Part shown: positions 239 to 639 of the stretch, piece by piece | Numbering within the stretch: the first letter of the stretch is position 1 | Layout: each line of letters opens with the position of its first letter | Source of the DNA: Escherichia coli | GTDB taxonomy: Bacteria > Pseudomonadota > Gammaproteobacteria > Enterobacterales > Enterobacteriaceae | Strand: one strand, 5' to 3' | Assembly: GCF_003334385.1 (NCBI RefSeq) | Contig: NZ_QOWN01000156.1 | DNA length: 639 nucleotides | The notes under the pieces: generated by a model | Databases searched by the model: none | What the model saw: the letters and a program-made list of their open reading frames with translations, nothing else | Told to the model about the DNA's origin: nothing | Position numbers and translations under genes: made by a program

Positions 239-639
239 TTAAAACTCGAAGTTCACACCAACATTCCAGGAGGCATCGCCATCACTGAATGCCACGCCTG
301 CTTTCGCTGCGGTCTGCTCGTTGAAGCGGTAACCCACACCCACTGCCAGTGCCTGCTGGTCGCTGTAACCACCAACCGCTGCCGTGGCGTTGAATTTACC
401 CACACTGTACGGCTGGAACAGACCTGTCAGGGCCGCAGACTGTGCTGCTGCTCGTTTCATTTCCTTATGGTTTTCATTAATCTGGCGCTGCTGGCTGTCC
501 AGACGTGCTGAATGTTGCTGCAGCGTACGGGTATTGGCTGCAATCGCCTTGCTGTTTTTCTCAATGGATTGCGTGTTACGGGTGACACGGCCATCAATGG
601 CACCAACTGCTGCATCAATACGGTCAGTACGACCAGACA
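239..639 (-). CDS. Trimeric autotransporter adhesin (YadA/Eib-like), C-terminal part: coiled-coil stalk plus beta-barrel membrane anchor. 5'-partial; the gene continues beyond the window's right edge.
   Basis: Minus-strand frame with first full codon at 637..635 is open from the window edge to TAA at 241..239. Translation: [132 protein letters not shown]. The last ~65 residues ([22 protein letters not shown]...WNVGVNFEF) have the Gly/Ala-rich alternating pattern and terminal aromatic (Phe) typical of the YadA-type anchor. The upstream ~60 residues show a strict heptad with hydrophobic a (I/V/L/M) and polar d (N/N/N/H/Q/N) positions. The ATG at 460..458 that starts the 73-aa track ORF is in this same frame and is an internal Met. 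Confidence 0.85.

Follow-up and report, generated by a model that had tools for sequence, protein, structure and literature searches.

The 3′ end of an Escherichia coli eib-family gene encodes the already known polar-core stalk of the Eib adhesins

A protein fragment encoded on the minus strand of a short Escherichia coli contig (NCBI RefSeq assembly GCF_003334385.1, contig NZ_QOWN01000156.1) carries polar residues at every seventh position across six consecutive heptads, and this raises the question of whether Asn, His, and Gln side chains form the core of a trimeric stalk and, if so, whether the His and Gln among them make that stalk special. Here, "the window" denotes the whole stretch of DNA that was analysed (639 nucleotides), and residues are numbered from the first one encoded at its edge. 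Our explanation of the pattern as a whole is a membrane-proximal, left-handed, parallel trimeric coiled coil of an Eib protein with a polar core at the d positions, a reading to which we assign a probability of about 0.93.

The sole long sensible reading frame in the window lies on the minus strand and runs from the window edge at position 637 to a stop codon at 241-239. Judged by its sequence, the encoded protein is an Eib-family trimeric autotransporter adhesin (immunoglobulin-binding and prophage-borne), and more precisely an EibA-like variant of 386 aa. The chromosome of E. coli SCU-104 matches the window at 100% identity, the feature being annotated there as a YadA C-terminal domain protein, and identity is at least 99% in 20 complete genomes. 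Among 5,426 complete E. coli genomes, 42 carry a match to the window, the median being three copies per genome and all copies chromosomal. When compared with a phage collection, the window was 97.8% identical to the ECOR-9 prophage records P-EibC and P-EibD and 95.2% identical to P-EibA, and the features lying under these matches are annotated as eibC/D/A, stem_loop, and orf-156C/D/A.

The full-length SCU-104 protein (386 aa; gene L001:6239-7399) shares 90% identity with EibA and 58% with EibC and EibD, forms a one-member cluster at 90% identity, and begins with an N-terminus (MSKKLAKTVLSAAMAGVLFGVSFDIMAA, outside the window) that appears signal-peptide-like by eye. Its C-terminal ~160 residues, from the saddle onward and with the polar heptads included, are essentially invariant across the SCU-104 protein, EibA, EibC, and EibD, so that the identity with these Eibs takes in the C-terminal saddle, the left-handed coiled coil, and the anchor. 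The gene in SCU-104 lacks a YadA-like beta-roll head, unlike EibD, and shares its head-less architecture with EibA (ECOR-9 P-EibA, 392 aa), which likewise has Ala at residue 9 and an Eaa/S6 autotransporter encoded downstream. In comparison with EibA, the SCU-104 protein is without one LEAQKGK heptad of the upper stalk and shows scattered substitutions toward the N-terminus, while in the anchor two residues differ, T85/S and Q94/E (fragment numbering).

The genomic surroundings agree with this assignment. The gene order in SCU-104 (L001) is the gpJ tail-tip protein, tail-fibre fragments, DUF4376, eib, a 156-aa ORF, and an S6-family autotransporter, and P-EibA, P-EibC, and P-EibD of ECOR-9 have the identical order of orf-191 (equal to DUF4376), eib, orf-156, and eaa (equal to the S6 peptidase); the gene is thus located on a lambdoid prophage, after the tail-fibre genes. 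The S6-family (SPATE-like) autotransporter is 1,341 aa long and is encoded at L001:1381-5406, just downstream of eib and orf-156, and may be compared with eaaA and eaaC in ECOR-9. No separate orf-60 is annotated in L001 between orf-156 and this autotransporter gene. Moreover, when the DNA of the last 400 nt is compared, departures from eibA are concentrated where the anchor is encoded and departures from eibC/D at the 5′ end of the stretch, and this opposite clustering suggests mosaic exchange between eib paralogues.

At the C-terminal end, the last 59 residues (328-386 of the 386 aa) match the Pfam family YadA_anchor (PF03895) with an E value of 3.5e-16, and a phmmer comparison matched the anchor to the YadA anchor structure 2LME (E = 1.5e-19). 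Two marks of a trimeric autotransporter (type Vc) are thereby present in the protein, namely a C-terminal YadA-like anchor and a trimeric coiled-coil stalk that leads straight into it. The positions of these and the other features of the window are listed in Table 1.

Table 1. Features located in the 639-nucleotide window, with residue numbers of the encoded fragment and, where available, of EibD
Feature	Position	Strand	Basis or remark
3′ end of eib-family gene	239-639	minus	last 132 residues plus stop codon (241-239)
R6-I7-D8, RxD-type motif at start of left-handed coiled coil	614-622	minus	alignment
Left-handed heptad coiled coil, V18 to M60	458-586	minus	EibD 397-439; 397-438 inside the 2XZR insert
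N21 (EibD N400), d layer, V-x-x-N heptad	575-577	minus	
N28 (EibD N407), d layer, I-x-x-N heptad	554-556	minus	
N35 (EibD N414), d layer, I-x-x-N heptad	533-535	minus	
H42 (EibD H421), d layer, L-x-x-H-x-x-R heptad	512-514	minus	
Q49 (EibD Q428), d layer, L-x-x-Q heptad	491-493	minus	
N56 (EibD N435), d layer, I-x-x-N heptad	470-472	minus	
YadA-like membrane anchor, four beta strands per chain, F74 to F132	242-418	minus	matches to PF03895 and 2LME
Intrinsic-terminator-like hairpin followed by a U run	181-215 (wider stem 178-225)	minus	folding; stem_loop in AF151675, AF151674, AF151091
Start of conserved 156-aa ORF (orf-156) found after every eib gene	1-150 (ATG 150-148)	minus	L001:5680-6150

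Between the motif at the helix start and the anchor lies the stalk, for which the original prediction had described hydrophobic residues at a and polar residues at d. On re-translation, the residue numbers and d-codon coordinates given for N21, N28, N35, H42, Q49, and N56 all proved correct, as did the a positions I25, I32, L39, L46, I53, and M60, and the a series opens one heptad earlier, with V18. A search of solved structures revealed that residues 12-61 (G12 to K61) are identical to EibD 391-440 and match 2xzr_A; EibD 391-438 is the insert of PDB entry 2XZR. Similarly, residues 1-39 match 2xqh_A, also from EibD, with a single difference, Tyr to Ala at residue 9. The likeness to EibD (ECOR-9 P-EibD; residues 391-438 in 2XZR and 160-418 in 2XQH) takes in all six polar d layers, and the anchor, the downstream stem-loop, and the orf-156 arrangement are the same as well, with Tyr (Y388) in EibD where the window has Ala. 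With YadA_anchor following directly, the identity to a crystallised EibD segment bears out the claim that the region belongs to the stalk of a trimeric autotransporter. The polar-core stalk is thus already known, and the observation made on the window is correct but ordinary, since the identical sequence has been crystallised.

The original prediction had further pointed to an alignment with the characterised stalks of EibD, SadA, and UspA1, and this held in part, in that EibD is identical, whereas SadA and UspA1 have no alignable homology in the segment beyond the coiled-coil pattern (2wpr, E = 0.63). The likeness to SadA and UspA1 is therefore one of motif and mechanism only: the N@d stalks of SadA, UspA1, and AtaA (Hartmann et al. 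2009) likewise combine [I/V]xxN heptads, a parallel trimer, and buried chloride, and they too have His and Gln in their cores.

As regards the individual layers, the N@d rule ([I/V] at a and Asn at d in a parallel trimer) holds for V18/N21, I25/N28, I32/N35, and I53/N56, and these pairs correspond to the rule for halide sites, [I/V]xxNxxx (PMC12933892). For the layers of H42 and Q49, where the a residue is Leu, the term N@d does not apply in the strict sense. That Asn at d is a hallmark of such stalks, with an anion in the core, agrees with what is published for EibD itself: the legend of Fig. 9 in PMC9543794 describes the N@d motif of 2XZR as sequestering chloride, close to the membrane anchor, and EibD is listed among the stalks with chloride-binding N@d layers (PMC6839023). 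A simulation study from 2026 computed chloride binding to be unfavourable in the three model trimers tested (PMC12933892), and so the extent to which chloride stabilises cores of this kind is debated. The d layers of UspA1 differ in what they bind, chloride in the case of Asn and water in that of Gln407 and His428; moreover, two core His residues in UspA1 527-665 bind phosphate, and in adhesins of this type Gln ranks with the polar residues seen most often in the core, QxxHxxx being a frequent motif (PMC6839023).

For the window, we consider that the axis of the trimer is faced by the a residues, which are beta-branched or aliphatic, together with the d residues, and that each of the four Asn layers ([I/V]xxN) is an N@d layer in which, as the literature has it, three amide groups hold a buried chloride. 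The His (LxxH) and Gln (LxxQ) layers are polar layers of the core as well and, by analogy with UspA1, most likely contain water, with another anion as a possibility. The suggestion in the original prediction that ion binding might be altered at these layers is accordingly a plausible one, given that His and Gln at d hold water and not chloride in UspA1, although the ligand at the His layer is uncertain because the core His residues of UspA1 527-665 bind phosphate rather than water. Such a polar core would fix both the trimeric state and the register. Following a published hypothesis, it may also maintain the passenger in a soluble, export-competent form up to the point at which this has moved past the 12-stranded C-terminal barrel, whereupon the passenger would zip up outwards, starting from the anchor. 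On this point, PMC6555100 relays the idea that anion coordination by hydrophilic residues in the core may assist the folding of otherwise difficult sequences once they have been exported.

In addition to its polar core, the outer face of the stalk's N-terminal half may serve to bind IgG Fc. The Fc site was reportedly mapped by Leo et al. in 2011 to about EibD 384-418, which would correspond to window residues 5-39. The EibD stalk has two regions that bind IgA and IgG (PMC7247746); PMC5450701 gives no information on the position of the Fc-binding region. In the R6-I7-D8 motif, the alignment pairs D8 with the Asp that is reportedly necessary for IgG Fc binding, and in EibG, replacement of the Asp in the RID motif (D391A) causes a loss of Fc binding (bioRxiv 10.64898/2025.12.25.695649). 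At residue 9 (611-613, minus strand), we noticed Ala, as in EibA and EibG, and Tyr is found there in EibC and EibD (EibD Y388); the position is said to contribute to IgG Fc binding. The Tyr that follows RID in the EibC-E type is Ala in EibG, and both EibA and EibG, with Ala in place of Tyr, still bind Fc (bioRxiv 10.64898/2025.12.25.695649).

To place the His and Gln layers among related stalks, we drew on 61 relatives from a 90%-clustered database and on the best 150 of 751 hits among 50%-identity representatives. The stalks were anchored on the invariant LFQP motif and read backwards without gaps, and 83 of them were left once segments at least 60% identical to each other had been removed; the counts at each layer are approximate, because insertions would shift the distant layers. 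With this ungapped reading, the position of H42 is occupied approximately by N in 23, H in 13, L in 9, T in 7, and M in 7 stalks, that of Q49 by L in 44, V in 12, I in 6, N in 6, and Q in 3, and that of N56 by L in 56 and N in 13. The description of the two layers as a less typical variant can therefore be retained for Gln, which is rare (3 of 83, against 44 with Leu), and has to be dropped for His: N or H stands at this layer in 36 of the 83, and so a His there in place of Asn is nothing odd.

As far as these sequences go, H42 is in fact the most widely shared of the polar layers, typically in the form H/N-x-x-R-[LIM], with HxxR four heptads before the anchor, and it is the Gln and the last Asn layers that distinguish the Eibs, their relatives having mostly Leu there. 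The H/N-x-x-R-[LIM] layer is seen from the Eibs to Haemophilus, Aggregatibacter, and Pasteurella and in a neisserial fragment in 6TIK. YadA-family adhesins of Pasteurellaceae and Neisseria (the 6TIK fragment; Haemophilus, Aggregatibacter) have a homologous anchor and homologous last four heptads, and where the Eibs have H42, their stalks retain a polar residue (H or N, then xxR[LIM]); in contrast, next to the anchor they have two Leu layers, for which the Eibs have Q/N. Among 141 representatives, 28 (~20%) contain at least six consecutive [ILVM]xx[NQH] heptads somewhere in the sequence, with runs of up to 16, and several of the long polar runs end in ...HxxR. In five unrelated-looking YadA-family adhesins (P0108, P0110, P0114, P0115, and P0116), runs of 8-14 IxxN heptads end in a His layer with xxR after it (IATHTQR, IAAHNQR), and this suggests a conserved motif, a "last polar layer" at a fixed distance before the anchor.

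The alternative that survives best is that the His and Gln layers are a functionally special, Eib-specific adaptation and more than two further polar core layers, for example a pH- or anion-sensitive soft spot that would let the stalk bend for IgG Fc binding or would control zipping during export. We consider this unlikely, even though the Eib type stands alone among the 83 stalks in having N, Q, or H at all six membrane-proximal d layers (1 of 83 in the ungapped survey), with Leu being usual at the positions of Q49 and N56. The idea of softness can also draw on the phosphate-binding core His residues of UspA1 (PMC6839023) and on the account given in PMC7688925, where 2XZR is credited with five small interior cavities (34-65 cubic Å), though with no mention of the layers at which they lie, and a proposal that cavities allow bending is relayed. 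However, the His layer is not specific to Eibs, being shared as N or H with over a third of the stalks and often closing the long N@d runs of unrelated adhesins as ...HxxR, and polar runs of six or more d layers are found in about one-fifth of the representatives. The residues identified so far as Fc-binding lie upstream of both layers, at D8 and residue 9 (bioRxiv 10.64898/2025.12.25.695649). Moreover, the DNA of the segment shows zero differences from eibC and eibD between -373 and -229, counted from the 3′ end of the stop-inclusive CDS, and because it is near-identical among eib paralogues, conservation within the Eibs reflects recent exchange or recombination and is silent on selection.

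The heptad register was judged from Fourier power, from shuffled sequences, and from the frame of the adaptors in 2XZR. Hydrophobicity power peaks at a period of 3.5 (51.8), as against 8-9 at the hendecad period of 3.67, and 61 of 20,000 shuffles reach this peak. Six consecutive in-phase [ILVM]xx[NQH] heptads arose in none of 200,000 shuffles of the 63-residue helix, for which the maximum was four (5 shuffles). More conspicuously, a reconstructed construct of GCN4-pII, EibD 391-438, and GCN4-pII equals the deposited 2XZR chain A residue for residue (1-106), with window residue i being chain residue i+18. In the GCN4-pII of 2XZR, the a positions are chain residues 1, 8, 15, 22, and 29 and the d positions 4, 11, 18, and 25, and the second adaptor begins at M78, 77 residues (11 heptads) past M1 and with no phase shift. 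As the adaptors stand 11 heptads apart, one continuous a/d frame is imposed through the EibD insert, and in this frame, the d positions are I14, N21, N28, N35, H42, Q49, and N56, the same register as that claimed from the sequence of the window.

A register in which the stripe of N, H, and Q residues is exposed to solvent and other residues form the core, which the original prediction had named as the outcome that would speak against it, is hence very improbable. There is a single strongly hydrophobic stripe, at the a positions, for which the stripe three residues later is the sole geometric partner; the crystallised construct, with in-frame GCN4-pII at both ends, runs its a/d pattern through the N, H, and Q residues; and the published figures, as far as the legend in PMC9543794 describes them, place the Asn layers with chloride in the core. 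We therefore excluded the wrong register on the basis of the adaptor frame of 2XZR and the published chloride in the Asn core layers.

The strict 21-nt periodicity that had been read from the window holds for the classes of residue encoded at a and d, and does not hold for the DNA, which has no 21-nt repeat. That the periodicity goes back to a DNA tandem repeat, produced when a 21-bp unit was recently duplicated, and not to a structural constraint on the protein, is highly unlikely and can be excluded for the window, for although whole heptads are gained or lost in related adhesins (the LEAQKGK that EibA has in addition to the SCU-104 protein, or SIEKNSK, which is absent from other Eib types), Tandem Repeats Finder detected no array in the window even at a score of 30, base identity at a lag of 21 (0.32) falls at background, within the 0.21-0.36 of other lags, and the heptads are alike only in residue class at a and d.

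Beyond the stalk and anchor, a GC-rich hairpin followed by UUUUU lies 24 nt past the eib stop codon, at a site where the ECOR-9 records of P-EibA, P-EibC, and P-EibD carry a stem_loop. It folds with -27 kcal/mol (z = -3.8), and none of 200 shuffles folds as well. This hairpin is probably the eib terminator, in which case orf-156 would need either read-through or a promoter of its own. The reading frame of orf-156 runs off the window, and its cluster at 90% identity has 797 members; searches of Pfam and NCBIfam returned no domain match for it. By eye, the C-terminal third of the orf-156 product resembles a LuxR-type helix-turn-helix (putative). On the plus strand, a Cys/His-rich ORF of 110 aa with an ATG start extends over 179-511, antisense to eib, and is most likely a by-product of the composition of the coding strand in the eib frame.

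With respect to its wider meaning, the motif of a coiled coil with a polar core dates back to 2009, and its presence in precisely this sequence has been on record since 2011. The gain is thus little more than an annotation, in which the window can confidently be assigned to the end of a lambdoid-prophage eib gene, the part that encodes stalk and anchor. It is doubtful that the Eib-lineage-specific stripe of six polar layers, continued up to the anchor with Gln and Asn in place of Leu, tunes the stalk for Fc binding or export instead of being a neutral N@d variant; if it were to do so, softness of the stalk, cavities, or a response to pH or anions would be the means. The Eib proteins to which this stalk belongs are found in some E. 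coli, commensal as well as Shiga-toxin-producing, as a factor in serum resistance, adhesion, and immune evasion.
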